From: a virus | Length of the DNA: 64,000 bases | Virus record (IMG/VR): IMGVR_UViG_3300044632_001319 | Direction: 5' to 3' (one strand) | Shown here: positions 6,512 to 64,000 of the stretch, one piece after another | Position numbering within the stretch: position 1 is the first letter of the stretch | How the letters are laid out: each line of letters opens with the position of its first letter | Notes under the pieces: generated by a model | The model's input: the letters and a program-made list of their open reading frames with translations, nothing else | The model's database searches: none | What the model was told of the DNA's origin: nothing | Made by a program: the position numbers and the translations under genes

Positions 6512-7026
6512 AAAATAAATCAGACAAGGAATTATACGAAGAAGTAGAATCCAAATTAAGGGATTCTATTCCTTCTATTGCACAAAATGTTCACTCATCT
6601 CTCAATGAAAGTTCAAATTTCATGAGAAAGATGGGTCTTTTTGCAGCAGAATATGCGCATAGAATAGTCGATGCGGCACACAAATTAAACCTGTCTGCTA
6701 ATATGGCATCAAAAAAGAATGCCTCTAGAATCAGAGATGAATTATTAACTTCTCATTATTCTGCTGAATTGGGAATGAAAAAGAATCACATTAACACCAT
6801 CTTAAATTTTTATCCACAAAACCATCCAGATAGAATATCACTTGAGGCAAAAATTAGAACAGTTGGTAGGGTAAATCCAATTATTGGATCCCTACAGAAA
6901 ACTTCTACAGCAACAATTGGAAATTATAAAGATAAGATCAATAAATCGTATAGTGTGCTGACTACCCCAATAACTCCAGCACAAATGGCAAATATATATC
7001 GTAATGCTCGTTCCAGAATACCTTAA
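6508..7026 (+). CDS. hypothetical protein
   Basis: 172 aa ORF with ATGA overlap on the gp21 stop; no recognisable motif. Confidence 0.6.
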   Translation: MKNKSDKELYEEVESKLRDSIPSIAQNVHSSLNESSNFMRKMGLFAAEYAHRIVDAAHKLNLSANMASKKNASRIRDELLTSHYSAELGMKKNHINTILNFYPQNHPDRISLEAKIRTVGRVNPIIGSLQKTSTATIGNYKDKINKSYSVLTTPITPAQMANIYRNARSRIP

Positions 7027-7087
7027 TTTTTTAAACGTCTAAATATTAAATATTCTAAATAGTTTTTAGAAAAAAGTGGAGAATCCA

Positions 7088-8119
7088 ATGGCAGAATCAA
7101 ACCCCTATGCAGACTACTCGTCAACCGATCTTTATAATGATGGAACAGGTAAAGGTGCAGTAATTGCTCCTCCTATATCAGATCCAAATGTTGCTGCAAC
7201 CAACCAATCAACCATTTCTGGTGCAGCAGCTGGTGGAAAGAAAAAGAAAAAAGAAGAAGCAAAAGAAAGCATTGACTACTTAGCAAGTCTATTTGACGGT
7301 GAAGAACTGTCAGAAGACTTTAAGTTCAAGGCAAAGACTATCTTTGAAGCAGCAATTGCAGAAAAGGTAGCAATAATTGAATCACACATCCTAGAAGCAG
7401 CAAAAGAAATTATCGAAGAGCAAGTAATCAACAATGGCAATAATCTTGTTGAGCAAGTTGATAGTTATCTTGATTACGTCATCTCAGAGTGGATGACTGA
7501 AAATAAAGTTGCTGTAGAGAGAGGTCTTCGCACAGAGATCGCAGAGAATTTCATCATGGGTCTAAAGAACCTGTTTGAGAATTCTTTCATCGATGTACCA
7601 CAAGAAAAATATAATGTTCTTGACGATCTCTTTGATGCAAACGAAGAACTTCAAGAGAACGTAAACAATCTAATCAAGCAAAATATGAACCTCAAGAATG
7701 AAATTAAAGCACATCTTTGTGCCGAAGCATTCATGGAGGAAACCGCTGGATTAGCAGCAACTCAAGTTGAAAAACTTGCTAAACTCTCAGAAGGACTCGA
7801 ATTTGAGACTGTAGATCAATACAAGCAAAAAGTTTCACTTCTTCGTGAGTCATACTTCTCAAGAAGACCACAACAAAGCGTAAGTGCTGCACCACAAGCA
7901 AATTATAATCCAACCCAAGTACCTCTAACCGAGGATACCCAAAGTGGTTCATTTGTTGGTGATTCAACCAGCAATGATCCACTCATGGAAAGCGTAATCA
8001 ATACAATTAGCATGTTACAAAGAAACAATCCAAAGGTTGAAAAAGTTCATCCAACTGAAAGAGCACAAAAACTTGCTAGTTTAATTAATCCCAATATCGT
8101 CAAGGACAATTACATTTGA
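7088..8119 (+). CDS. gp22: prohead scaffolding protein
   Basis: LSEDFKFKAKTIFEAA, VDSYLDYVISEWM.EN.VAVE.GLRTEIAE; ATG 7088 follows a GGAG RBS. Confidence 0.93.
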   Translation: MAESNPYADYSSTDLYNDGTGKGAVIAPPISDPNVAATNQSTISGAAAGGKKKKKEEAKESIDYLASLFDGEELSEDFKFKAKTIFEAAIAEKVAIIESHILEAAKEIIEEQVINNGNNLVEQVDSYLDYVISEWMTENKVAVERGLRTEIAENFIMGLKNLFENSFIDVPQEKYNVLDDLFDANEELQENVNNLIKQNMNLKNEIKAHLCAEAFMEETAGLAATQVEKLAKLSEGLEFETVDQYKQKVSLLRESYFSRRPQQSVSAAPQANYNPTQVPLTEDTQSGSFVGDSTSNDPLMESVINTISMLQRNNPKVEKVHPTERAQKLASLINPNIVKDNYI

Positions 8120-8166
8120 AAATGTAAATTTAATAAATAAATAAAGACTTAAGGAGAGAAAAATAA

Positions 8167-9660
8167 ATGTCACTCGATTTTAACAATAGTACACCATATG
8201 ACACACTCGTAGAGAAGTGGTCACCCGTTCTAGAACACGGAGATCTTCCATCAATTACTGACCTTCACAAGAAGCGCGTAACCGCAGTCCTTCTTGAGAA
8301 CCAAGTCAAGGCAATGAGAGAAGAAAGAGCATCACAAAACCTTTTCGAAAATACCATGGGACCAATCGGAATCGGTGGCAACTTTGCTGCTGGTCAAGTT
8401 GGTGCAGCAGGAAATTTCGCAGGTTATGATCCTGTTCTGATTTCACTCGTTCGCCGCGCAATGCCCAATGTCGTTGCATACGACATCGCAGGCGTTCAAC
8501 CCATGAGTGCTCCAACTGGACTCATCTTCGCAATGCGCGCACGTTATGGAAACGACAACAACGGATACACCCAAGGCGAAGAAGCACTCTTCGATGAACC
8601 ATGGTCCAAGTTCTCAGGTGTTTGCGGTGCATCTGGACCTGGTGCAGCAAATTACGCAGCAATTCTTTCTGGTTCAACACTCGGTATCTTCGGAAACAAT
8701 GCACTCGGTAATTTTGATGCAGCAACCAATGGTGCAACCTTTATTACTCGTCCTGATGTCTTCAGTCAGTTCCGTGGTATGCTTACCTCAACTGCTGAAA
8801 CTCTCGGTAAGAATACTGAAACAGCAGACTTCCGTGAAATGGCATTCAGCATTGAACGCGTTGCTGTACAAGCAAGATCACGCGCACTCAAAGCAGAATA
8901 CACCACAGAACTCGCACAAGATCTTCGTGCAGTACACGGACTTGATGCAGAGGCAGAACTTGCTAACATCCTCTCGGTTGAAATCATGAACGAAATCAAC
9001 CGCGAAATTCTTCGCGCAATGTACTATGTTGCTAAGACTGGTTGCCAAAACACCGATCTAGCTTCTAGAGTTGGTGGTGGATCAGGTGGTGTTTATGACC
9101 TTATTCTCGACTCAGACGGTCGTTGGTCAGCAGAACGCTTCCGTGGACTTATGTTCCAAATTGAACGCGAAGCAAACGCAATTGCTAAGGATACTCGTAG
9201 AGGCAAGGGTAACTTCATCGTATGCAGTGCAGACGTTGCTTCAGCACTCGCAATGGGTGGATTCCTCAACCTCTCACCAGCACTCAATGTAGACCTTCAA
9301 GTAGATGATACTGGTAACGTCTTCGCTGGTGTACTCAACAACAAGTTCAAAGTTTACATCGATCCCTTCATTGCAAACAATGTTAACTTCATCACTGTTG
9401 GATACAAGGGAACCTCACCATATGACGCAGGATTCTTCTACTGCCCATACGTTCCCCTCCAAATGGTACGCGCAGTCGGTCAAGACACCTTCCAACCAAA
9501 GATCGGATTTAAGACTCGTTACGGTCTAGTTGCAAATCCCTTCGCTGGTGGTCGTAGCAGCACCTTCGGTTCAGGCAAACCAGAAGACGGTCTAGAGGCA
9601 AGCACCAATGCTTACTACCGCCTCTTCGCAGTCAAGAATCTCCACGGAAACACCGTCTGA
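8167..9660 (+). CDS. gp23: major capsid protein
   Basis: DPVLISLVRR, GVQPMSAPTGLIFAMR, SRALKAEYT.ELAQDL, YCPYVPLQM, FQPKIGFKTRYG. Confidence 0.98.
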   Translation: MSLDFNNSTPYDTLVEKWSPVLEHGDLPSITDLHKKRVTAVLLENQVKAMREERASQNLFENTMGPIGIGGNFAAGQVGAAGNFAGYDPVLISLVRRAMPNVVAYDIAGVQPMSAPTGLIFAMRARYGNDNNGYTQGEEALFDEPWSKFSGVCGASGPGAANYAAILSGSTLGIFGNNALGNFDAATNGATFITRPDVFSQFRGMLTSTAETLGKNTETADFREMAFSIERVAVQARSRALKAEYTTELAQDLRAVHGLDAEAELANILSVEIMNEINREILRAMYYVAKTGCQNTDLASRVGGGSGGVYDLILDSDGRWSAERFRGLMFQIEREANAIAKDTRRGKGNFIVCSADVASALAMGGFLNLSPALNVDLQVDDTGNVFAGVLNNKFKVYIDPFIANNVNFITVGYKGTSPYDAGFFYCPYVPLQMVRAVGQDTFQPKIGFKTRYGLVANPFAGGRSSTFGSGKPEDGLEASTNAYYRLFAVKNLHGNTV

Positions 9661-10758: not shown

Positions 10759-12218
10759 TAAAGATAAAACATGTAGATTCTGTTTATATTCAGATAGAGT
10801 GTGACAAAGGTATTGCTAAGGAACTTTCTTCATTCTTTACTTTTAGAGTTCCAAATTCTGAATACAATCCAGCATTCCGTAAGAAAAAATGGGATGGTAA
10901 GATTCGTTTATATAATATCATTACCAATAAAATATATGCTGGTTTGCTTCCTTATGTAATGACATTTGCATCTGAACGTGGATACAAAGTCGCATACGAG
11001 AGTTTACTCAAGAATGACGATCCACCAACACAATTTCCTAGAGTCTTCGCAGGAGGCAAGGAGATTCAACCACACGACTACCAGATCGAATCAGTCAAGC
11101 ACGCCATACAAAATCGTAGAGCACTTCTGATATCACCTACTGGTAGTGGCAAGAGTTTGATCATCTATATGATCATGCTGGAATTGTTGCAGAGAACACA
11201 GAATAAGATTCTCATTGTCGTGCCAACAACAGGACTAGTTACACAACTGAACTCTGATTTTCAAGACTACGCAAATTCAAAATCCATATCAAAACATATA
11301 CACTTAGTCTATGGTGGACAAGAAAAGAACACTGACTGTAGAGTAGTCATCTCAACATGGCAAAGTCTTCACACTCAGTCTGAAGAATATTTCAAGCAAT
11401 TTGATGCAATCATCGGTGATGAATCACATTTGTTTAAGGCAAAATCACTGATCAAGATAATGACCAAGTTGAAAAATTGCAATTATAGAATAGGAACGAC
11501 AGGAACGTTGGATGGTACACAGGTACACAGACTCGTACTAGAAGGTTTATTTGGAGCAGTACATCAAGTAACTACAACCAAGGAACTCATAGACAAGGAT
11601 GTCTTGGCAAAATTAAATATTGAATGTTTACTTTTGAGATATTCCGATGCAGATATTCAACAGATTAAAAGAGCAAAATATGTTGAAGAGATCGATTGGT
11701 TGGTTACCAATGAAAAAAGAAATAACTTCATCAGTAATTTAGCAAATAGTATTTCTGGAAATGTACTTGTGCTCTTCAATTTTGTTGAAAAGCACGGTGT
11801 TCCTTTGTTTCAAAAGATATCAAAGAACAATAAGAAAGATTGTTATCTTATTTGTGGAAAGACTGATATCGAGGAAAGAGAAGACATTCGTAAAATTGTA
11901 GATAAGCAAAACAATAGCATACTTGTTGCATCGTATGGTACATGCAGCACAGGCATCAATATCAAAAACATACATGCCATTATATTTGCTTCACCATCCA
12001 AATCAGTTATTCGTGTCTTGCAGTCAATTGGTAGAGGGTTGAGAAAGTCTGACACAAAGGATAGAGTAACAGTGTTTGATTTAGGTGATGATCTCAGTTA
12101 CCTCAAGTATCGCAATCATGCGTTGCGACATCTAGATGAGCGCACCAGCATATATACTAATGAACAGTTTACATTCAAGAAGACTAAAATCAAATTAGGA
12201 GATACGAATGAATCTTAA
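10755..12218 (+). CDS. uvsW: SF2 helicase
   Basis: SPTGSGKS, GDESH, GTTGT, QSIGRGLR. Confidence 0.95.
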   Translation: MIKIKHVDSVYIQIECDKGIAKELSSFFTFRVPNSEYNPAFRKKKWDGKIRLYNIITNKIYAGLLPYVMTFASERGYKVAYESLLKNDDPPTQFPRVFAGGKEIQPHDYQIESVKHAIQNRRALLISPTGSGKSLIIYMIMLELLQRTQNKILIVVPTTGLVTQLNSDFQDYANSKSISKHIHLVYGGQEKNTDCRVVISTWQSLHTQSEEYFKQFDAIIGDESHLFKAKSLIKIMTKLKNCNYRIGTTGTLDGTQVHRLVLEGLFGAVHQVTTTKELIDKDVLAKLNIECLLLRYSDADIQQIKRAKYVEEIDWLVTNEKRNNFISNLANSISGNVLVLFNFVEKHGVPLFQKISKNNKKDCYLICGKTDIEEREDIRKIVDKQNNSILVASYGTCSTGINIKNIHAIIFASPSKSVIRVLQSIGRGLRKSDTKDRVTVFDLGDDLSYLKYRNHALRHLDERTSIYTNEQFTFKKTKIKLGDTNES

Positions 12219-36029: not shown

Positions 36030-36030
<1 letters not shown>

Positions 36031-37175
36031 TGGCATTAACAAACGGATTCCAATTACCATTCGGTATACAACCAGTAAACCCACTGCCAGTAGACAGTTG
36101 GTCTGGTCCGTATACTGGTGGCACTATTGCCGAAGCACTTACAGCAGCAAATACTTCTATTCCAAGTGCAATTCGTTTTCAATCAATGGAAGTTCGTATT
36201 ATTGTTGGTGGTGAGTCATACAAGTATTGGTATCGCGATGGAATTACCGACTCTAATCTTGTAGAGTTTGCTTCCACTTCTTCTGGAATTTCTGGACCTT
36301 ATGTTTCAAAAATAAATGGATTTACTGGTGGTATTACATTTGCTGGTGGAACTGGAATAGGATTAACTTATTTAAACAATATTTTTACCTATTCAAATAC
36401 TGGTGTGCTTTCTGTTACTGGAACTGGTGGATTAACTGCAAGTCCAACCACTGGTGTAGGAAATGTCAGTGTATCTCTCGAACCAGGTTACAAATTATTA
36501 AGATCATACCCTGATGTTACTGCTTTAAACAATTCACCAAACCCACAGGATGGTGATCTAGCATGGGTCGTTAATGATGGAAATGGTTTTGGTGGATATT
36601 ATTATTATACTACTGCATTAAGTCCAAATGCATGGGTTAAGATGTCTTTATTATCTAATGCCTTTCTAGGAGATGTAAATCTAGATGGAACAGTTGATGG
36701 TGTTGACTTAGCAGTTATTTTGAACAGTTGGGGAATTCTTGGAACAAATCCGAGTTTAAATTTTGGTGTTAGTGATGGTATAGCTGGAGCATTTAAAGTT
36801 TATGCTTATGGTGCGACACTAGGCAAAAAGGCAGATATATTAAGAATTGCTACAGATAGTGCTCTTTCGACCGTAAGTATAAATTCAGAAACATTGACAA
36901 TTGATGCGTATACTTCCATATATGGGGATGGAACTACTTCACTAGAACTTATAAACGGTGGATTAAAATTTTCTGATGGAACTACCCAAGGAACAGCACC
37001 CCAACTAAAAACTATAAATGGATGTACTGGTAATATTGGAATAACTGGAACCCCAAACGAGGTTGAAATTACCACAAGTTGCCCATCTATTCAAATAGGA
37101 CTGCCCAATGATGTCGTAATATCGGGTTCTTTAAGGGTAAACGGAAGCATATATATAGATGGCGGAACTTTTTAA
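36030..37175 (+). CDS. virion fibre protein with dockerin-like motif
   Basis: INGFTGGI / INGCTGNI fibre motifs, GDVNLDGTVDGVDLAVILNSWG, C-terminal IDGGTF. Confidence 0.65.
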
Positions 37176-39311: not shown

Positions 39312-40256
39312 ATGGCAAAAATTAAGATCAAGAACTCAGTAACAGCAGGATCTGCTCCATCTGGATTATCCTTTGGTGAAATGGCTGTTAACATTACTGA
39401 TAAAAAGATCTTTATTGGAAATGCTGTAGAGGGTGTAGTTACTTTACACGATCAGAATAATGTAGTTACTAGTATAGATGGTTCTACTGGTGCTATTCTA
39501 GGTGTTGCATATACACAAGCAGCAAATGTCTTTACATCGCTTCAAAGTTTTAATAATGGAATTTCAGCATCTGCTGGTTCTTCATTCAATAGTGCCACTG
39601 TTTTTATCTCAAATCTGACAGCAAATGTTGATCCATTACATGTCCAGCATTCTTCTACTGGTGCTTTGAAAGTATCAACATCTGGTCAGGCAAGAGCTGG
39701 TGCTATTAAACTTGGAAATTCAACAACTTCAACATTTAATACATTTATCAATAATAGTGATGGTACTCTAACCTTCTACAACGGAATCAGTTCTACTGGT
39801 TCCAACATGATAAACTTCAATACCACCACAATGAATATATCACCCACAATCGCGGGTGCAACATTCAGTGCATTGATAACATCTACTTCTGGTATTTCTG
39901 CATCTGGTGGTATTACAACTGCTTCATATCTTTATGCTGAAAATGGATTTAGAGTTGGTTCTGGAGCAATCAATTCACGAACTGGAACAACATACACTTT
40001 GCTCTCGACAGACAATGGTGAGATTATAGTTTGGAATACAAGTTCAGCAGGAACCTTGACCATTCCATCTGGTCTTCCTGTTGGATTCAATGCCACTTTG
40101 ATTCAAACAGGAACTGCTGCAATTGGCATCACTGGGTCTGGAACAACACTCAATAGTTTTGAAAACAAACTAAATACAGCAGGACAACATGCTGCGGTAA
40201 GTATCATTTCCTACAGCAGCAATGTATTCAATGTTGCTGGAGGACTAACAGGATGA
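39312..40256 (+). CDS. tail fibre protein
   Basis: IKIKNS..G..P..LSFGEMAVN N-terminus; TYTL..TDNG...LTIP.GLPVGF C-terminal domain. Confidence 0.72.
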   Translation: MAKIKIKNSVTAGSAPSGLSFGEMAVNITDKKIFIGNAVEGVVTLHDQNNVVTSIDGSTGAILGVAYTQAANVFTSLQSFNNGISASAGSSFNSATVFISNLTANVDPLHVQHSSTGALKVSTSGQARAGAIKLGNSTTSTFNTFINNSDGTLTFYNGISSTGSNMINFNTTTMNISPTIAGATFSALITSTSGISASGGITTASYLYAENGFRVGSGAINSRTGTTYTLLSTDNGEIIVWNTSSAGTLTIPSGLPVGFNATLIQTGTAAIGITGSGTTLNSFENKLNTAGQHAAVSIISYSSNVFNVAGGLTG

Positions 40257-43200
40257 TAATTCCAAGCTTCAAGGCTGGTATCTTAACTTTCATCAGGAAA
40301 ATTGTTGCTGCTATTCCAACAAATGGAAAATTGTTTATTTGGGGAAACAATAATGCTGGTCAAGTGGGAAATTCTACAACTGGGGTTGTGCCTGCTCAAA
40401 ATGTTTCTTCTCCTGTCCAAGTTGGAACTGCCACAGATTGGAATGTGGTTTCTTTTGGTAACGGTCATATTTTAGCAACAAAAACAGGAGGTAGTCTCTG
40501 GTCTTGGGGTTATGGAGGCTTCGGTCAATTGGGTTCTGGTACTACTACCAGCCTTTCATCTCCTGTCCAAGTTGGATCAGGTACGGATTGGGCAAGCGTT
40601 TCTGCTGGTGGAAGAGCATCATTTGCAATAAAAACCAATGGAACTCTTTGGGCGTGGGGTAGAAATACCTATGGTCAATTGGGTCTTGGCAATACTACCA
40701 GCCGTTCATCTCCTGTCCAAGTTGGAACAGGTACGGATTGGGCAAGCGTTTTTGTTGGAGAATATCATACAATTGCTTTAAAAACTACTGGAACTCTTTG
40801 GGGATGGGGTAGAAATAATGCTGGTCAATTGGGTCTTGGTGATACCACCAACCGATCATCTCCTGTCCAAGTTGGAACAGATACGAATTGGAGTAAAGTT
40901 TCATCTGGAAGACAACATACACTTGCTGTAAAATCAAATGGAACTCTTTGGGCATGGGGAAATAATGGTTATGGTCGTCTTGGACTCCGTGATACTAACA
41001 ACCGATCATCTCCTGTCCAAGTTGGAACAGATACGAATTGGTCGATTGTAGATGCAGGATACACTCACAGCCACGCAATAAGAACCACTGGAACTCTTTG
41101 GAGTTTTGGTGCTAATGTGCTAAGAGGTGAACTTGGAGTTGGAGATCAAGTAAATAGATCATCTCCTGTTCAAGTGGGAGCGAACACCGATTGGATAAAT
41201 GTTGGTGCTGGAAGGAATGCATCAATAGCAAGAAGATCAAATAAAACTCTTTGGGCATGGGGTTCAAGTGCATATGGTCTGTTGGTGTTTGAAAATGGAA
41301 GAGCATACAATTTACGCATAAGCAAACCAACACTAATATCAAATGATACATGGTCTTCTTTTACAGCAAAACGAGATCATACTTTTGGAATTAAGACTAC
41401 AGGAACTCTTTGGGCATGGGGAAAGAACTTTAGTGGGGTATTGGGAACTGGAAATGAAGTAAATCAGTCTTCTCCTGTCCAAATAGGCTCTGGTACGGAT
41501 TGGTCTTCTATTGGTTCTGCTGCAACAACAGACAGATTCACTGTTGCAATAAAAACTAATGGTTCTCTTTGGACTTGGGGATTAGGTACATATGGAAGAC
41601 TTGGTTCAGGTAACAATAATAGTAGATCATCTCCTGTTCAAGTGGGAACAGATACGAATTGGGCAAGCACTTCTTCTAGTCCATATCATACACTTGCTGT
41701 AAAAACAAATGGAACTCTATGGGCATGGGGAAGAGGTGCACATGGACAATTAGGGAATGATAGTTTTGTTACAAGGTCATCACCAGTACAGATAGGAAGT
41801 GATAGCAATTGGGCAAGCGTTTCTGCTGGTGGTCTAGCAACTAATGATGCTCAATCATTTGCAGTAAAAACCACTGGAACTCTTTGGGCATGGGGGAATA
41901 ATAATTATGGAAAACTTGGTTTAGGAACGCTTGCCCGTGATCGTACTAGTTCTCCTGTCCAAGTGGGAACAGATACGAATTGGTCTTTGGTAGGAGGAAA
42001 TGCGGGATTTGGAGGCTCAACAATAGCAGTGAAAACTACTGGAACACTTTGGGTTTGGGGAAGAAATAATAGTTATCATTTAGGTCTTATCTATAGTTAT
42101 GTATCACGGTTCTCTCCTACTCAACAGGGAACAGACAGTAATTGGGCTACGGCTTCAATGGGATATCTTGTTGCATCTGCAATAAGAACCACTGGAACTC
42201 TTTGGACATGGGGTAGTGGATCATATGGTTCTTTGGGAAATGGCACTGCTGTCACAGTATCATCTCCTGTTCAAGTGGGAACACAAACCGATTGGTCGAA
42301 AGTATCTGCTGCAAACAGAAATTGTGCGGCAATAAAAACCACTGGAACTCTTTGGACATGGGGTAGAAATACCTATGGTCAATTGGGTCTTGGCAATACT
42401 ACCAGCCGTTCATCTCCTGTCCAAGTTGGAACAGGTACTGATTGGGCTAGTGTATCTTGCGGCATTAGTAGTCATGTTTGTGCAGTTAAGACTGGAGGAA
42501 CCCTGTGGGCATGGGGTAGAAATAATTTTGGTCAATTGGGTCTTGGTGATACCACCAACCGATCATCTCCTGTTCAAGTGGGAACAGGTACGGATTGGGC
42601 TAGTGTTAACTGTAACTATGCCAGTACATTGGCAATAAAAACCAATGGAACTCTTTGGGCATGGGGACTAAATGCTCAATACCAATTGGGTCTTGGTAAT
42701 ACCACCAACCGATCATCTCCTGTTCAAGTGGGAACAGATACTAATTGGAGTAAAGTTTCCTCTGCAAGATTCCATACAATTGGGTTAAAAACCACAGGAA
42801 CCCTGTGGGCATGGGGAAGAAATACTGGCGGTGAATTGGGTCTTGGTAATGTTAGTAACCGATCTGCACCAACGCAAATTGGATCTAAAACAGACTGGAG
42901 CAATATTGGTGTTGGAACTAGTGCATCTTTTGGAATAAACACTTCAGGAAAACTTTATGCTTTTGGTTTGAATTCTGGTTACGGAAGATTAGGAATACAA
43001 ACTTTTAATTATTACAATTCACCCAAACAAGTAGGAACTGCTACAGATTGGTCAAGTGTATCAACTGCTGGAAATTCCACGATGGCTAGGAAAACCACTG
43101 GAACCCTGTGGGGGTGGGGTAGGAATAATAATGGTCAATTGGGTCTTGGTGATGCCACCACTCGATCATCTCCTGTTCAAGTGGGAACAGGTACTGATTG

Positions 43201-43558
43201 GAGTAAAGTTTCAATCGGAAGATATGACACAAAAGCAATTAAAACTGGTGGAACTCTTTGGGCATGGGGATTTAATTCATACGGTGGATTGGGTACTAGT
43301 GATACCACCAACCGATCATCTCCTGTTCAAGTGGGAAGTGCTACGAATTGGAACGACATAAGTAGTGCGTATAATCACAACATGGCAAAAAATACATCTA
43401 ATTTGTTGTATGGTATGGGAAGAAACGGATTTTCCGAAATTATTAGATTTACAAACCATGTATCTTCTCCTGTCCAAGTTGGCACATCTTCAAATTGGAG
43501 CACCGTGGTTATTTCTAGAGGTGCGGGAGATAATTGTGCTGCAATAGAAACTACATAG
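40253..43558 (+). CDS. RCC1/BLIP-II repeat beta-propeller protein
   Basis: About 20 repeats of GTLWAWG.N..GQLGLG....RSSPVQVGT.TDW. Confidence 0.92.
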   Translation: MIIPSFKAGILTFIRKIVAAIPTNGKLFIWGNNNAGQVGNSTTGVVPAQNVSSPVQVGTATDWNVVSFGNGHILATKTGGSLWSWGYGGFGQLGSGTTTSLSSPVQVGSGTDWASVSAGGRASFAIKTNGTLWAWGRNTYGQLGLGNTTSRSSPVQVGTGTDWASVFVGEYHTIALKTTGTLWGWGRNNAGQLGLGDTTNRSSPVQVGTDTNWSKVSSGRQHTLAVKSNGTLWAWGNNGYGRLGLRDTNNRSSPVQVGTDTNWSIVDAGYTHSHAIRTTGTLWSFGANVLRGELGVGDQVNRSSPVQVGANTDWINVGAGRNASIARRSNKTLWAWGSSAYGLLVFENGRAYNLRISKPTLISNDTWSSFTAKRDHTFGIKTTGTLWAWGKNFSGVLGTGNEVNQSSPVQIGSGTDWSSIGSAATTDRFTVAIKTNGSLWTWGLGTYGRLGSGNNNSRSSPVQVGTDTNWASTSSSPYHTLAVKTNGTLWAWGRGAHGQLGNDSFVTRSSPVQIGSDSNWASVSAGGLATNDAQSFAVKTTGTLWAWGNNNYGKLGLGTLARDRTSSPVQVGTDTNWSLVGGNAGFGGSTIAVKTTGTLWVWGRNNSYHLGLIYSYVSRFSPTQQGTDSNWATASMGYLVASAIRTTGTLWTWGSGSYGSLGNGTAVTVSSPVQVGTQTDWSKVSAANRNCAAIKTTGTLWTWGRNTYGQLGLGNTTSRSSPVQVGTGTDWASVSCGISSHVCAVKTGGTLWAWGRNNFGQLGLGDTTNRSSPVQVGTGTDWASVNCNYASTLAIKTNGTLWAWGLNAQYQLGLGNTTNRSSPVQVGTDTNWSKVSSARFHTIGLKTTGTLWAWGRNTGGELGLGNVSNRSAPTQIGSKTDWSNIGVGTSASFGINTSGKLYAFGLNSGYGRLGIQTFNYYNSPKQVGTATDWSSVSTAGNSTMARKTTGTLWGWGRNNNGQLGLGDATTRSSPVQVGTGTDWSKVSIGRYDTKAIKTGGTLWAWGFNSYGGLGTSDTTNRSSPVQVGSATNWNDISSAYNHNMAKNTSNLLYGMGRNGFSEIIRFTNHVSSPVQVGTSSNWSTVVISRGAGDNCAAIETT
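40655..42438 (+). repeat. identical 80-bp direct repeat (40655-40734 and 42359-42438) within RCC1 repeats
   Basis: tggggtagaaatacctatggtcaattgggtcttggc...gttggaacaggtac occurs twice exactly. Confidence 0.85.
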
Positions 43559-43582: not shown

Positions 43583-45373
43583 ATGATTTATTTTCTCAGT
43601 GGTCTTCCCCGTAGTGGTTCAACCGTTCTCTCTTCCCTTCTTAATCAGCACCCTCAAGTCCATTCAACACCAACAAGCGGTCTTATAGACATTCTTGGCT
43701 CTGTATGCACAACATGGGAAAGTTCACCAACCACTGTTGCACAGGGTGGAGAGAAGGAAGAAGCCTATCGTATGCTTCGATCCGTCATTGATGCAAAGTA
43801 TAAGGATGTGAAGAAATCAGTAATCATTGACAAGAGCAGGGGATGGGTGAATCCACAGATAATGGAAACAATGACAAAGGTTCTTGGTCATCATCCAAAG
43901 ATTATAGCAACCGTTCGATCTACTGCCGACTGTGCTGCATCATTTGTAAGAGTTGCAAAACCAAACGATGTTTCAGAGTTTCTTCGCTCTTCGCAATTGA
44001 TTCAACATCTCAAATCATCATATGCTGAACTGAAAAATGGATATGACTCTGCGCCAAATAATATATTATTCATTGACTATGATGATCTTATTCAGTCTCC
44101 ACAGGAACAACTGAATCTAATTCATAAGTTTCTTGGACTTGATCCATTTGAATATGATTTTGGAAATATCGACACAAAGGTTGTGGCAGAAAAAGATGAT
44201 GCAGCATGGGGAATTCCAAATCTTCATACGATATCACCACGATTAGGATATCAACATAATCAAGATTCAAGAAAAATTCTAGCACAGCACTTCGACAGTT
44301 ACGACCAACCAAAATTCTGGAAGGGAGAGGTTCGTGACTATAAGAAAAAAAAGATCGACCACTCCGTTGCACTTTCGATGAAAGGTGAGTTTGGGGAGTC
44401 ATATAAACTTCTTTGTGAAGCACAGAAGGAGAATCCTCTATGTAACAAGATTGCCTTCAACATGGGTTGGTATGCCTTGCGTCAGGGAAGATTACAAGAG
44501 GGAATGGAGGGTTTGGCTAGGGGTCGATATGAGAACTGTTTTGGCAATCCAAGACCACCAGTACCAACACCAATGTGGGATGGGAAGAGTATGGGAACAA
44601 TCCTATATTACCTTGAAGGTGGAATAGGAGATCAGATTCATGCTTTAAAATACATCAAAGACATGAATAGACGAGGATGTGATATTATTGTTGCTTGTTC
44701 TGCTGAATTGTTTCCGATTGTTAAATGCTGCATAGGTGTAAAGATGATTATAGAACACTCCGCTGCTGGTGGTGTATACCATGATTTTTGGGTTCCAGCC
44801 ATGTCAGTTCTCATACCGTTGGGTTATGAATATAAAGATATTAATGGTTCTCCTTATATTCCAAAAACAAATAGCCCAAAGAACAAGCGACCCGTGATAG
44901 GAGTTCGTTGGCAGGGAAATCCAAAGTTCGAACATGAGCAAAATCGTAGATTTCCACTGAAGTCTTTCTTTGATGCTCTAAAGAATATTGATGCTGATTT
45001 TATTTGTTTACAAAGAGATGCTGGAGAGGAAGATTGTCCAGAATTCATCAAGAAAGTTCCCCTAAATAATTGGGAACAAACACGAGATGCTATATCTGGC
45101 TGCGATCTTGTGATATCATCATGCACCAGTGTTGCACATCTTGCAGGAGCAATGGGAGTTCCAACATGGATAATTGTTCCTGTCTTGAACTATTACATAT
45201 GGTCTGTGCCTGGTGACAAATCACCTTACTATGATTCAGTAAAGTTGTTCAGGCAAAAAAAGTTTGGATGTTGGAAGCATCCTATATCGGAGTTGAAGAA
45301 AAATTTAGAGGGTCAGTTTGGAATTGTAAAGAAATCAAAATGGAGTAAACTATGCCAAAGCATATTAGGGTAG
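43583..45373 (+). CDS. sulfotransferase + TPR-like + GT9-like fusion
   Basis: SGLPRSGST PAPS loop and DKSRGW; then EGGIGDQI, WQGNP, DLVISSCTSVAHLAGAMG.PTW. Confidence 0.82.
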   Translation: MIYFLSGLPRSGSTVLSSLLNQHPQVHSTPTSGLIDILGSVCTTWESSPTTVAQGGEKEEAYRMLRSVIDAKYKDVKKSVIIDKSRGWVNPQIMETMTKVLGHHPKIIATVRSTADCAASFVRVAKPNDVSEFLRSSQLIQHLKSSYAELKNGYDSAPNNILFIDYDDLIQSPQEQLNLIHKFLGLDPFEYDFGNIDTKVVAEKDDAAWGIPNLHTISPRLGYQHNQDSRKILAQHFDSYDQPKFWKGEVRDYKKKKIDHSVALSMKGEFGESYKLLCEAQKENPLCNKIAFNMGWYALRQGRLQEGMEGLARGRYENCFGNPRPPVPTPMWDGKSMGTILYYLEGGIGDQIHALKYIKDMNRRGCDIIVACSAELFPIVKCCIGVKMIIEHSAAGGVYHDFWVPAMSVLIPLGYEYKDINGSPYIPKTNSPKNKRPVIGVRWQGNPKFEHEQNRRFPLKSFFDALKNIDADFICLQRDAGEEDCPEFIKKVPLNNWEQTRDAISGCDLVISSCTSVAHLAGAMGVPTWIIVPVLNYYIWSVPGDKSPYYDSVKLFRQKKFGCWKHPISELKKNLEGQFGIVKKSKWSKLCQSILG

Positions 45374-54219: not shown

Positions 54220-54852
54220 ATGAAGACACTAATCGCAACAGCATTTATCGCAACGGCAGCACACGCAAATCTCACACTCACATTTGAGGATCTGCCTGAG
54301 CCTACAGTACCTTCCTCAAACGTTGAGTTCGTGGTTGCAAGTCCTATCGGAGATTACCAAGGATTTCAGTTCTTGAGCAATCTCGTCGTTCCTGCATCGA
54401 ATCCCGAATGGCAACCATTCTCAGGACGATGGGCATACTACGACATCAAGGATGTGGACTTCGGCGGCTACGACGATGGGCTCGTCGGTGACCGTGCGCT
54501 ATTCACCCCCTATGGGTCGGACGCTGCCAATGGGTTTAGAATCAGTCGAGACGAACTTTGGAGGTTTGTCGGTGCGGACATCACCGCTGCATGGATTGAC
54601 CTTGACTTGACTCTCACAGGATATCGGGATGGTTCGGTTGTATGGAGCCGCACTCTGTCGATCCCTTCTATGGTGAGAACAAGGCTAGAGTTCGATGAAG
54701 TAGCCATTGATACCTTGAAGATCTCAGGGTTTTCTCCTAACTCGCCCATCAACCATTTCATCCTCGACAATTTCTCTTACGAGATCGTTCCCACACCATC
54801 GGCACTTGCTCTGCTTGCGGTTGCTGGTGTGATCCGAAGGCGGCGACGATAA
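54220..54852 (+). CDS. PEP-CTERM-type exported surface protein
   Basis: Signal peptide MKTLIATAFIATAAHA, LTFEDL start, C-terminal VPTPSALALLAVAGVIRRRRR. Confidence 0.85.
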   Translation: MKTLIATAFIATAAHANLTLTFEDLPEPTVPSSNVEFVVASPIGDYQGFQFLSNLVVPASNPEWQPFSGRWAYYDIKDVDFGGYDDGLVGDRALFTPYGSDAANGFRISRDELWRFVGADITAAWIDLDLTLTGYRDGSVVWSRTLSIPSMVRTRLEFDEVAIDTLKISGFSPNSPINHFILDNFSYEIVPTPSALALLAVAGVIRRRRR

Positions 54853-61285: not shown

Positions 61286-61313
61286 GAATGCCCTTTTGGG
61301 AACAGGAGTTACT

Positions 61314-63233
61314 ATGAAAGAATTACCATCGGATTATCAAAAATTTATTCACACATCACGATACGCTCGTTGGATTGAAAAAGAAAAACGACGAGAGACA
61401 TGGGGTGAGACAGTAAAGCGTTATTTTGATTTCTTTGAGACACACCTCAAGGAACACAACAATTATACGATTCCACAAGAACTAAGAGCAGAACTTGAGA
61501 ATGCTGTTCTCAATCTTGAAATCATGCCAAGCATGAGAGCATTGATGACTGCTGGAGAGGCACTTCGTCGTGACAACACAGCAGGATATAATTGCTCGTA
61601 TGTAGCAATCAATCGTGTTCGTGCTTTCGATGAAATACTATATATTTTGATGTGTGGTACAGGTGTTGGTTTCTCGGTGGAGAGACAATATGTTGAAAAA
61701 CTTCCTACAATTGCTGAAAACTTCTCTGCTAGTGATACCACTATCATTGTGGAAGATAGCAAGGCTGGTTGGGCTAAGGCTTACAAAGAACTTGTCTCCT
61801 TACTCATTGGAGGTCAAATACCAAAATGGGATATATCAAAAATTCGTCCTGCTGGGGCTCGTCTCAAAACTTTCGGTGGCAGAGCAAGCGGACCAAGACC
61901 TCTGGAAGACCTGTTTAAGTTCACCGTTGATACTTTTAAGAGAGCATCGGGGAGAAAACTCACAAGTATCGAATGCCATGATATCGTCTGTAAAATTGCA
62001 GAAATTGTGGTGGTGGGAGGAGTCCGTAGATCTGCTCTTATTAGCCTATCCAATCTTACAGACGAAAGAATGCGAGATGCCAAATCTGGTGCATGGTGGA
62101 ATGAAAATCCGCAAAGAGCACTCGCAAACAATTCCGTTGCGTACAAGGAAAAACCAGAAATAGGAGTGTTCATGGATGAGTGGGTTTCGCTATATAAATC
62201 AAAAAGTGGAGAACGTGGTATTTTTAATCGCGATGCTTGTAGGAAGACTGTCGCTAAACTTGGAGATCGCCGTGACTCGTCTTATGAGTTTGGTACAAAT
62301 CCTTGCTCTGAGATTATTCTACGCGACCGTGAATTTTGCAACCTTACTGAAGTTGTAGTTCGTCCAGGTGATGGTCTAGCATCTCTTCGTCGTAAGGTTC
62401 GTCTTGCTGCTATTCTTGGAACTTGGCAAGCATCACTAACTCACTTCCCATATCTTTCTTCTGAATGGAAGAAGAACTGTGAAGAGGAAGCATTGCTAGG
62501 ACTCTCACTCACTGGTATTCTAGACAACCAAATGATGCGTTCGGTTGGCGATCTTCCAAACACCTTGGAGGTTCTGAAGCAAGAAGCAATTACAACCAAT
62601 GAAGTTTGGGCAAAAACTATTGGTATTAATCCAGCAGCAGCAATCACTTGCATCAAACCATCGGGTACAGTCTCACAACTAACTGATGCAGCATCTGGTA
62701 TTCATGCTCGTCACAATAATTATTACATCCGCACGGTTCGTGCTGATCGTAAGGATCCTCTGTGCCAAATGATGATTGATATGGGATTCCCTGCGGAACC
62801 TTGTGTAATGAAACCAGACCACACAATGGTCTTCTCATTCCCAATGAAAGCAGAGGGATCAATTACTCGTAACGACATGACTGCAATTGAGCATCTAGAG
62901 TTATGGTTAACATATCAGAGACACTGGTGTGAACACAAACCATCAATCACTGTCACCGTCAAGGAACACGAATGGATGGAGGTCGGAGCATTTGTTTACA
63001 AGCACTTTGATGAAATCAGTGGCATCTCATTCCTTCCCCACAGCGATCACTCATATCGTCAAGCACCTTACCAAGACTGCACTAAAGAAGAATATGAAGC
63101 AGCATATATACAGATGCCAAAGAATGTAGACTGGACTCTACTTTCTAAATATGAGAAAGAAGATAAGACTGTAGGAGCACAAACCTTTGCCTGTAGTGGC
63201 GATAAATGTGAACTTGTAGATCTTACTACATAA
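61314..63233 (+). CDS. nrdJ: class II (B12-dependent) ribonucleotide reductase
   Basis: PSMRAL, YNC, GGVRRSA, GTNPCSEI, TCIKPSGTVS, C-terminal ACSGDKCE; no beta-subunit gene adjacent. Confidence 0.92.
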   Translation: MKELPSDYQKFIHTSRYARWIEKEKRRETWGETVKRYFDFFETHLKEHNNYTIPQELRAELENAVLNLEIMPSMRALMTAGEALRRDNTAGYNCSYVAINRVRAFDEILYILMCGTGVGFSVERQYVEKLPTIAENFSASDTTIIVEDSKAGWAKAYKELVSLLIGGQIPKWDISKIRPAGARLKTFGGRASGPRPLEDLFKFTVDTFKRASGRKLTSIECHDIVCKIAEIVVVGGVRRSALISLSNLTDERMRDAKSGAWWNENPQRALANNSVAYKEKPEIGVFMDEWVSLYKSKSGERGIFNRDACRKTVAKLGDRRDSSYEFGTNPCSEIILRDREFCNLTEVVVRPGDGLASLRRKVRLAAILGTWQASLTHFPYLSSEWKKNCEEEALLGLSLTGILDNQMMRSVGDLPNTLEVLKQEAITTNEVWAKTIGINPAAAITCIKPSGTVSQLTDAASGIHARHNNYYIRTVRADRKDPLCQMMIDMGFPAEPCVMKPDHTMVFSFPMKAEGSITRNDMTAIEHLELWLTYQRHWCEHKPSITVTVKEHEWMEVGAFVYKHFDEISGISFLPHSDHSYRQAPYQDCTKEEYEAAYIQMPKNVDWTLLSKYEKEDKTVGAQTFACSGDKCELVDLTT

Positions 63234-63267: not shown

Positions 63268-63308
63268 ACAACCCCCCTACCCCCCGTCTATGGGGGGTTG
63301 TTTCTTTT
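63268..63308 (+). terminator. rho-independent terminator after nrdJ
   Basis: ACAACCCCCC / GGGGGGTTGT stem followed by TTCTTTT. Confidence 0.8.
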
Positions 63309-63315
63309 ATAAATA
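63308..63315 (+). promoter_or_regulatory. T4-type late promoter TATAAATA
   Basis: Exact consensus followed by an AGGAG RBS and ATG 63333. Confidence 0.78.
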
Positions 63316-63332
63316 CTGGTAGGAGACATCAT

Positions 63333-64000
63333 ATGAAAAGTATTATAGCAACGGCAGCATCTTTTTTATTGATGGTTAGTTCAAGTTTTGGTCAGACTAA
63401 TCCTGATGCAAAGATTAATCTGATTCTAGAATCACCAGAAACAACAGTTTCTGTTGGAGAAACATTTGAAGTTCCAATTTTAATGGCAGCAGCAACAGAA
63501 CCACAAAGATATATTGTATCTGATATAATCTTTGGTTGGGATCAAACAAAACTTGAGTTTCTTGGTATAAGTCACGTTGGTTCGCATCCAAATATTTGGG
63601 TTCCCCCAAGTGGTATGCCATGCCCCGCTGGTTATCAAAATTGTGCTGGTATTGGTACTGACTACACACAGATCAATGAAGCAATTCCACCCGCAGATGG
63701 TAATGGACTCTACTACGGATATGGTGCTCTTGGATATGTGTTTATAGTGAATCAACAACCCATTCAAATTGTTCGTTTACAATTTAAAGTTTTAGAATCA
63801 TTTGTTCAAACCGAAGTTAAGGTTCTTCCAGAATACAATACTGTTATCGAAAACAAAACAGTAATCTATGGAAGCAATATTCCAGGATTATCTGTTCTTG
63901 GTACAATAACCGATGCAGTCATCTTTGGAACTCCCGCACCCGCTGGAGATTTTAACGGAGATGGTGTAGTTGGATCTGAAGATATGGCAGCATTACTGGG
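63333..64000 (+). CDS. secreted cohesin-like + dockerin-like protein (3' truncated)
   Basis: Open to the window end and absent from the ORF track: MKSIIATAASFLLMVSSSFG (signal), TVSVGETFEVPI...FGWDQTKLEF...LQFKVL (cohesin-like), GDFNGDGVVGSEDMAALL (dockerin-like). Confidence 0.75.
   Translation, partial: MKSIIATAASFLLMVSSSFGQTNPDAKINLILESPETTVSVGETFEVPILMAAATEPQRYIVSDIIFGWDQTKLEFLGISHVGSHPNIWVPPSGMPCPAGYQNCAGIGTDYTQINEAIPPADGNGLYYGYGALGYVFIVNQQPIQIVRLQFKVLESFVQTEVKVLPEYNTVIENKTVIYGSNIPGLSVLGTITDAVIFGTPAPAGDFNGDGVVGSEDMAALL

Follow-up and report, generated by a model that had tools for sequence, protein, structure and literature searches.

What use could a phage have for a cohesin and a dockerin, whose pairs are among the strongest protein connectors known and are familiar from cellulosomes and a few toxin complexes? 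The question is raised by the gene at the edge of a 64,000-nucleotide stretch of DNA (the window) from IMG/VR virus record IMGVR_UViG_3300044632_001319, which comes from a T4-like freshwater phage. Its product appears to be a 256-residue, non-catalytic adaptor in which a Sec signal peptide is followed by a divergent cohesin and by a dockerin of Ca type with two repeats. We rate the chances as about even that this protein is the phage's version of a host surface adaptor and, once exported late in infection, plugs into a host cohesin–dockerin network.

The window holds most of the gene (Table 1), which runs about 103 nt further and there covers the second dockerin repeat. The remainder is supplied by P0023 (162 residues), a product of the window's own contig, which is identical to residues 95–222 of the window protein and then continues with the second repeat (...GNWG...YDLDGDGVVGAGDLAILVSNWS) and a stop; the full protein therefore has 256 residues, arranged as a Sec-type signal peptide, a domain of ~180 residues and a two-repeat dockerin. 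The motifs from which the initial annotation had read a cohesin-like domain and a Ca loop (VSVGETFEVPI, WDQTKLEF, LQFKV and GDFNGDGVVGSEDMAALL) are all present in the window protein.

That the ~180-residue domain is cohesin-like, as first proposed, is confirmed by the beta-sandwich of its predicted structures, although Pfam Cohesin (PF00963) matches neither the window fragment nor the full-length phage homologues, the gathering score not being reached. Two models were compared with known structures. Model 1, of the window fragment with a 32-sequence family alignment, has a predicted local distance difference test score (pLDDT) of 70.9. Model 2, of the full-length homologue P0001 (contig L002, 74% identical) with an alignment of 73 sequences, distant cellular relatives among them, reaches a pLDDT of 92.3 and a predicted template modelling score (pTM) of 0.81. 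In a Foldseek search of the PDB with the window model the first ~45 matches are almost all cohesins (E 1e-6 to 1e-4). A Foldseek-independent scan of 48,161 chains with VIA-align places cohesins in the top 17 positions, and in 20 of the top 21, for the window model (Z 13.0–9.1), and in all of the top 20 for model 2 (types I, II and III; Z 14.9–10.4), the next fold class (pilin, Ig-like) beginning at Z 9.4 or less for the latter. The root-mean-square deviations (rmsd) of model 2 from its cohesin neighbours are mostly 2.3–3.3 Å over 133–151 residues, that is, over whole modules, with 4ums (4.2 Å) and 3kcp (15.1 Å) as exceptions; the best neighbour, 6kgc_A, aligns over 138 of 144 residues at 2.3 Å (Z 14.9). 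Both models display the nine-stranded, flattened beta-sandwich jelly-roll of ~140 residues by which cohesins are recognized, and on this structural prediction the N-terminal domain is a true, divergent cohesin fold.

The same affiliation is faint in sequence. Among 81 members of the wider superfamily, eight match Pfam Cohesin at E ≤ 0.1, the best at 1.1e-4, and these form a bridge to the classical family. The 222-residue window fragment has no Pfam, PHROG or NCBIfam match; the window edge cuts its dockerin in half. Searching PDB sequences with family profiles returned dockerins and EF-hands and no cohesin, and a fold search of BFVD gave no informative viral neighbour.

Where would such a domain bind its ligand? 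Cohesins bind their cognate dockerins with high affinity, in a Ca-dependent manner, on the sheet made of strands 8, 3, 6 and 5. In the phage family, invariant residues fall on strands 3, 5, 6 and 8, as assigned by strand order only. The most conserved motifs of the whole superfamily sit in an insertion between strands 4 and 5: NE..PP.DG.GLY throughout, joined in phages by GSHP.IW and a Cys pair. Even among sequences with as little as 21–30% identity, N115, E116, P120, D122 and G123 hardly vary or do not vary at all. The pLDDT of this insertion is low with a shallow alignment and rises to 71–91 with a deep one.

The tail had been described as dockerin-like, and Pfam bears this out in the full-length homologues, which pass the 22.9-bit cut-off of Dockerin_1 (PF00404) with 29.4 and 33.6 bits, scores in five related contigs being 32–41 bits. 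Both Ca loops are intact, position 12 being D and positions 1, 3 and 5 each D or N, and the protein carries the two tandem repeats of ~22 residues, each an EF-hand-like Ca loop followed by a helix, that characterize type I dockerins. In model 2 the helices span residues 213–221 and 243–251, and the tail aligns with the NagH dockerin 2ozn_B at 1.7 Å over 53 residues (Z 8.9, 30% identity). The phage proteins end in NWS or NWG, without a terminal GPC; many cellular homologues have WGPC-type ends.

The signal peptide, likewise part of the initial annotation, has the expected n/h/c layout, with MK, a hydrophobic core at residues 3–14 (mean Kyte–Doolittle value 2.3) and S-F-G before Q, in agreement with the −3/−1 rule. 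By hydropathy and this rule it is of the Sec, signal peptidase I type; the N-terminus contains no lipobox Cys, and the peptide is modelled as a lone helix. An equivalent layout, mostly with A-x-A before Q, is shared by every aligned full-length family member. The insertion harbors a nearly invariant Cys, with a second Cys nearby in most members, and this conserved pair fits an oxidising, extracytoplasmic location.

Expression of the gene appears to be under its own control. The upstream neighbor, a ribonucleotide reductase gene (61296–63233), ends at 63233 and is closed by a terminator-like hairpin, of a kind seen at four sites in the window against 0.2 expected in shuffles. Between the hairpin and the start codon lies TATAAATA, which matches the T4-type late promoter consensus as established for T4. 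This octamer is not over-represented in the window (6 seen, 5.7 expected). All six copies are on the + strand, each 24–39 nt 5′ of an ATG that opens an ORF (open reading frame) of 119–442 residues, and their placement is not random; T4-type late promoters are positioned likewise. As in a T4 late unit, TATAAATA would occupy the −10 position, with no −35 element, close 5′ of the start codon, and the cohesin–dockerin gene is thus predicted to have its own T4-type late promoter. The initial annotation had listed a late promoter, an AGGAG, an ATG at 63333 and a frame open to the window edge, and each of these is there. Hairpin, TATAAATA and Shine–Dalgarno sequence are all kept 5′ of the homologues in L004 and L005, the two closest with intergenic DNA; hairpin and TATAAATA are absent 5′ of those in L002, whose copy overlaps a nuclease gene, and of those in L006–L008. 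(A)GGAG is kept in all seven aligned upstream regions.

How widespread is the gene, and is it maintained? Homologues of 225–282 residues occur in eight IMG/VR contigs and in ~31 clusters at 90% identity, nearly all with the same architecture of a signal-peptide-like N-terminus, a ~180-residue domain and a dockerin. Family members come from viral or metagenome contigs only and are annotated solely as ‘hypothetical protein’; fused longer forms of 390–2000 residues were not found. GenBank phages gave no match by megablast with the last 3 kb or by tblastn with the protein, and an alignment of the phage family run against 185,579 species genomes found no close relative. Between homologues whose dS is not saturated, dN/dS is 0.07–0.14, which points to strong purifying selection. 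Among the homologous genes, GC content is lowest in the window (0.38, matching the phage) and highest in L005 and L006 (0.53), and their phages (L002, L004, L005, L006 and L008 were compared) differ considerably in base composition.

The gene neighborhood differs in every phage looked at. In L002 a staphylococcal-nuclease homologue (PF00565; 9552–10004, +) overlaps the start of the cohesin–dockerin gene. Further 5′ is a 923-residue protein with a gp25 baseplate-wedge domain (6842–9613, +), and directly 3′ of the cohesin–dockerin gene is a tubulin/FtsZ-family GTPase (PF00091, 46.5 bits; 10767–11954, +), possibly a cytoskeletal gene of the PhuZ/TubZ kind carried by a T4-like freshwater phage. 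In L008, a 92-kb phage contig, the ORF just 5′ of the homologue (8873–9628, +) has a signal peptide and a terminal Phe and looks like an outer-membrane beta-barrel; it has no Pfam match. A 26-kb IMG/VR contig (L064:4001–5338, +) encodes a 446-residue protein of the P0055 type (20 cluster members) that has no dockerin and in which two stretches match the profile of the cohesin-like N-domain, the best at the C-terminus. The cohesin-like fold may be used more widely by phages.

The domain also has cellular relatives. A HMMER search with an N-domain-only profile over 1.84 billion representatives retrieved 159 proteins at E ≤ 1e-3. Apart from the phage type, the set consists of GC-rich, exported proteins in which this N-domain precedes one of three kinds of C-terminal part: a two-repeat dockerin ending in WGPC (the GC-type dockerin model NF041540 is matched by 21 of the 81 superfamily members), a PEP-CTERM-type tail, or long stretches of MopE repeats together with a further Pfam Cohesin and an end resembling a dockerin. 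The tail thus seems to be an anchor that can be swapped, and the cohesin-like domain the head that does the work. When genomes were scanned with a cellular subset, 33 loci emerged, 30 of them in named Planctomycetota (including Phycisphaerae, Planctomycetales and Isosphaeraceae), one in Anaerolineae and two without a name. Together with the NF041540 matches, this agrees with the initial remark that such a dockerin-like motif is common in exported planctomycete proteins; both the L..WG style of the dockerin and the cohesin-like domain are typical of them.

In five Planctomycetota genomes (L051–L055 in G006–G010) the small cohesin–dockerin gene directly adjoins a gene for a protein of 985–1463 residues. 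Pfam Cohesin matches this large neighbor above the cut-off in one genome and below it in three, that of G009 having only a weak match in the genome scan; HYR is found in four of the five, and one has a Dockerin_1 match. Such an architecture is that of the ‘planctosome adaptor’ proposed for freshwater Phycisphaerae (Andrei et al., 2019; PMC6461901). In three of these genomes the dockerin part of the profile matches at least 146 ORFs, and therefore many potential ligands, against 1–5 cohesin matches per genome. The gene pair could well be the locus that anchors a very large dockerin secretome, cohesin–dockerin pairs being used by some bacteria, Planctomycetota in particular, to attach proteins to their surface.

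Taken together, these features suggest how the phage protein could work. Late in infection the host Sec system would export it, and its dockerin would dock onto cohesin-bearing scaffold proteins of the host. The cohesin face could then capture dockerin-tailed host surface proteins or further copies of the phage protein itself, by which the phage would insert into, cap or re-wire the cohesin–dockerin display on the host surface. The likeliest pay-off would be an altered surface of the infected cell, which might for example mask a receptor or prevent progeny and superinfecting phage from sticking to infected cells and debris. The benefits first proposed, namely masked receptors, exclusion of superinfection and freed progeny, are speculative at this stage. 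If the phage protein does bind host modules, this would show that the large ‘dockerin secretome’ is displayed via cohesins, provide a host-assignment marker for a phage group without a cultured host, and reveal a new way for phages to re-wire the surface of their hosts. Protein engineering, too, would gain a compact, orthogonal connector from the cohesin–dockerin pair.

Several observations weigh against a phage copy of a host adaptor. The phage dockerin fails the GC-type model NF041540, the L008 homologue scoring 14.1 against a required 29 bits and the others giving no match, and this failure leaves its fit to host cohesins unproven. The most conserved motif lies in the insertion, which classical cohesins lack, so something other than a dockerin may be the ligand. 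The signal peptide was called by inspection. The phage has a GC content of ~0.36–0.40, far below the 0.61–0.67 of the sampled Planctomycetota loci, although homologous phage genes reach 0.53. When 203 N-domains were placed in a FastTree phylogeny, the phage-type sequences grouped in a single clade (35 rows, local support 95) that is not nested in named Planctomycetota; the named loci lie outside the 67-row clade (support 99) that contains it, and its nearest relatives are metagenome proteins, at least one of them in an IMG/VR contig. Run against 300 other Planctomycetota genomes, a profile of the phage sequences only gave no match at E ≤ 1e-5, by which recent capture from a sampled planctomycete was rejected. 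The separate clade, the empty profile search and the lack of a close genome relative point to an old, phage-adapted lineage rather than a recent capture. A Planctomycetota host for this phage is, from the cellular relatives, plausible.

Does the head bind protein at all? It could instead be a lectin, with the dockerin as its anchor and the N-domain binding host exopolysaccharide or cell-wall glycan through the aromatic-rich insertion, for instance in modifying a capsule or exopolysaccharide layer at lysis. The most conserved residues (W69, N115, E116, P120, D122, G123 and the tyrosines of GLYYGYG) lie in or beside the insertion, which is missing from classical cohesins; the phage family lacks a Pfam Cohesin match; and beta-sandwich folds of this size are common in carbohydrate-binding modules (CBMs). 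PEP-CTERM tails, which go with exosortase and exopolysaccharide systems, are frequent in the cellular homologues. We nevertheless regard a lectin as unlikely, as the structural neighbors are, by a clear margin, cohesins and not CBMs, and in cellular genomes the domain is fused to, or adjoins, proteins with Pfam Cohesin and dockerin. Another thought is that the cohesin of one copy binds the dockerin of the next, so that copies would link head to tail into chains or form a mesh that covers or surrounds the infected cell. Both modules are united in one small polypeptide with no other domain and are retained as a pair in nearly all clusters of the family; proteins of Archaeoglobus fulgidus that contain the two modules reportedly bind their own kind, and the cohesin 2xdh from that organism is a neighbor at Z 12.8. 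The exchange of the dockerin for a PEP-CTERM tail in cellular homologues argues that the tail is an anchor and not the partner of the head, and the pTM of 0.81, that of a monomer, is uninformative on inter-chain contacts; such a self-assembling coat seems to us quite improbable. A passenger ‘moron’, recently acquired from a bacterium and without a role in infection, would account for the shifting neighbors (ribonucleotide reductase here, nuclease and tubulin-family genes in L002, the barrel-like ORF in L008) and for the cassette of terminator and promoter. This reading we find hard to credit: the purifying selection contradicts a neutral passenger, the phage-type clade is monophyletic over contigs with gene GC of 0.38–0.53, the gene fits the phage rather than a donor in GC content, and 185,579 species genomes yielded no close relative.

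The remaining alternatives involve the virion. The initial annotation had noted a dockerin-like motif in a fibre gene of the window, and one repeat of the type is indeed present there, scoring 17.9 bits against Dockerin_1 and thus remaining below the Pfam cut-off. With a hidden Markov model of the family dockerin, this fibre ORF is the sole other match among the window ORFs (E 1.2e-5). The secreted cohesin might pair with this repeat, either as a decoy against superinfecting phage or as a soluble adaptor between the fibre and a host cohesin, and the repeat, the only other segment of dockerin type in the window, bears the same L..WG signature as the dockerin of the secreted protein. Against such pairing, the repeat is single and sub-threshold, and it sits in the variable part of the fibre, of which homologues in other phages have only the N-terminal ~80 residues in common. 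Virions, moreover, assemble in the cytoplasm, and the cohesin–dockerin protein would be exported. The expected co-occurrence of the two genes in related phages did not materialize: five contigs with the fibre N-terminus (one 89% complete) have no cohesin–dockerin gene, and five with the cohesin–dockerin gene have no second dockerin. Nine of these ten contigs are fragments, so that the missing co-occurrence weakens the link to the fibre and does not refute it. Pairing with the fibre alone is in our estimation decidedly improbable. A combined, two-part system, in which the exported protein coats host scaffolds and also recognizes the fibre repeat, acting as a decoy that stops superinfection or as a soluble bridge between virion and host cohesin, is likewise rather improbable; if true, it would represent a new principle of adsorption or exclusion and offer a handle on the proposed ‘planctosome’ surface system.

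A further gene in the window bears on the theme of the host surface. The PEP-CTERM gene invoked in the initial annotation is present as a gene for a PEP-CTERM-type exported protein, with a GC content of ~0.47–0.50 against ~0.36 around it. A homologue with 43% identity (L065:1492–2118, −) resides on the same contig as L004, ~10 kb from the cohesin–dockerin gene there, and begins with the same signal-peptide residues (MKTLIATAFI), its tail being VVPAPSALALLAVAGAVGRRRRSK; in the L002 contig there is a tail-only match. PEP-CTERM-type and cohesin–dockerin genes co-occur here and in the L004 contig, and thus proteins addressed to host surface sorting recur in these phages. No second cohesin-like domain was found in the window by hidden Markov model search, the PEP-CTERM-type protein included. 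The fibre region also encodes a 1101-residue protein made nearly entirely of RCC1 repeats (40253–43558, +; PF25390, 982 bits, 19 stretches), and 3′ of it lies a sulfotransferase (43583–45373, +; PF13469).

Table 1. Position and character of the features in the window; strand and coordinates refer to the 64,000-nucleotide stretch.
Feature	Position	Strand	Remarks
ORF of the cohesin–dockerin gene	63333–63998	+	Starts at ATG 63333, open up to the window edge; 222 residues in the window
Signal peptide, residues 1–20	63333–63392	+	Predicted cleavage SFG/QT (sequence SSSFG/QT)
Cohesin-fold domain, residues 21–202	63393–63938	+	Nine-strand beta sandwich; structure comparison of models
Insertion between strands 4 and 5, ~45 residues	63573–63707	+	GSHP.IW, Cys pair, NE..PP.DG.GLYYGYG
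First dockerin repeat	63945–64000	+	Ca loop D-x-N-x-D-G...D and helix start; GDFNGDGVVGSEDMAALL
Terminator-like hairpin ACCCCCCG/TGGGGGGT and T-run	63279–63308 (hairpin 63279–63298)	+	Closes the ribonucleotide reductase gene
TATAAATA, T4-type late promoter consensus	63308–63315	+	25 nt 5′ of ATG 63333
Shine–Dalgarno AGGAG	63321–63325	+	7 nt 5′ of ATG
Single dockerin-type repeat GDVNLDGTVDGVDLAVILNSWG	36666–36737	+	Within fibre-block ORF 36030–37175; L..WG signature
PEP-CTERM-type exported protein	54220–54852	+	Signal peptide, tail IVPTPSALALLAVAGVIRRRRR, PTP variant

How does the phage protein compare with known systems? As to fold, the closest are the type I modules of clostridial cellulosomes, with 6kgc (CaCohA2) and 1ohz (C. 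thermocellum) matched at Z 14.9 and 12.7 (rmsd 2.3–2.5 Å over 134–138 residues), and clostridial dockerins, like that of the phage, have two Ca loops, each followed by a helix. Sequence identity to these cohesins is 10–17%, and the phage family differs from them in having no Pfam Cohesin match and in its conserved 45-residue insertion between strands 4 and 5; unlike clostridial cellulosomes, the phage system has neither a scaffoldin nor any cargo in the form of an enzyme or CBM. Connectors used outside cellulose degradation, as here, are found in Archaeoglobus fulgidus (2xdh) and in the NagH/NagJ toxin-complex modules of Clostridium perfringens (2ozn, 2vo8, 2w1n), of which 2vo8 is a neighbor of the phage homologue model at Z 14.8; these modules are parts of large enzymes or archaeal proteins, and none is a small, stand-alone viral protein. 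T5 Llp and T4 Imm and Sp, examples of phage proteins that use the host machinery for export and target surface receptors or entry, are lipoproteins or membrane proteins and mostly early. They have no sequence or fold in common with the phage protein, and the likeness would be one of function.

The nearest counterparts are the small Planctomycetota proteins of signal peptide, cohesin-like domain and GC-type dockerin (NF041540, ‘GC-type dockerin domain-anchored protein’; ‘planctosome’, PMC6461901). They possess the same three-part architecture at ~240–280 residues, an N-domain homologous to that of the phage (HMMER E down to 1e-16 in single genomes), the NE..PP.DG.GLY motif and the L..WG dockerin signature. 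Identity is only ~21–35%, and the phage proteins form a clade of their own; their insertion is longer and contains a Cys pair, and their dockerin, without the terminal GPC, fails NF041540. The phage gene stands alone, whereas the Planctomycetota gene adjoins a large Cohesin and HYR gene, both sides being known from sequences. A phage-encoded cohesin–dockerin protein was not described in the papers searched. The modules themselves, including non-cellulosomal ones, were already known; what appears to be new is a conserved, stand-alone phage protein, predicted to be exported, that combines the two and whose cohesin is of a divergent subtype.

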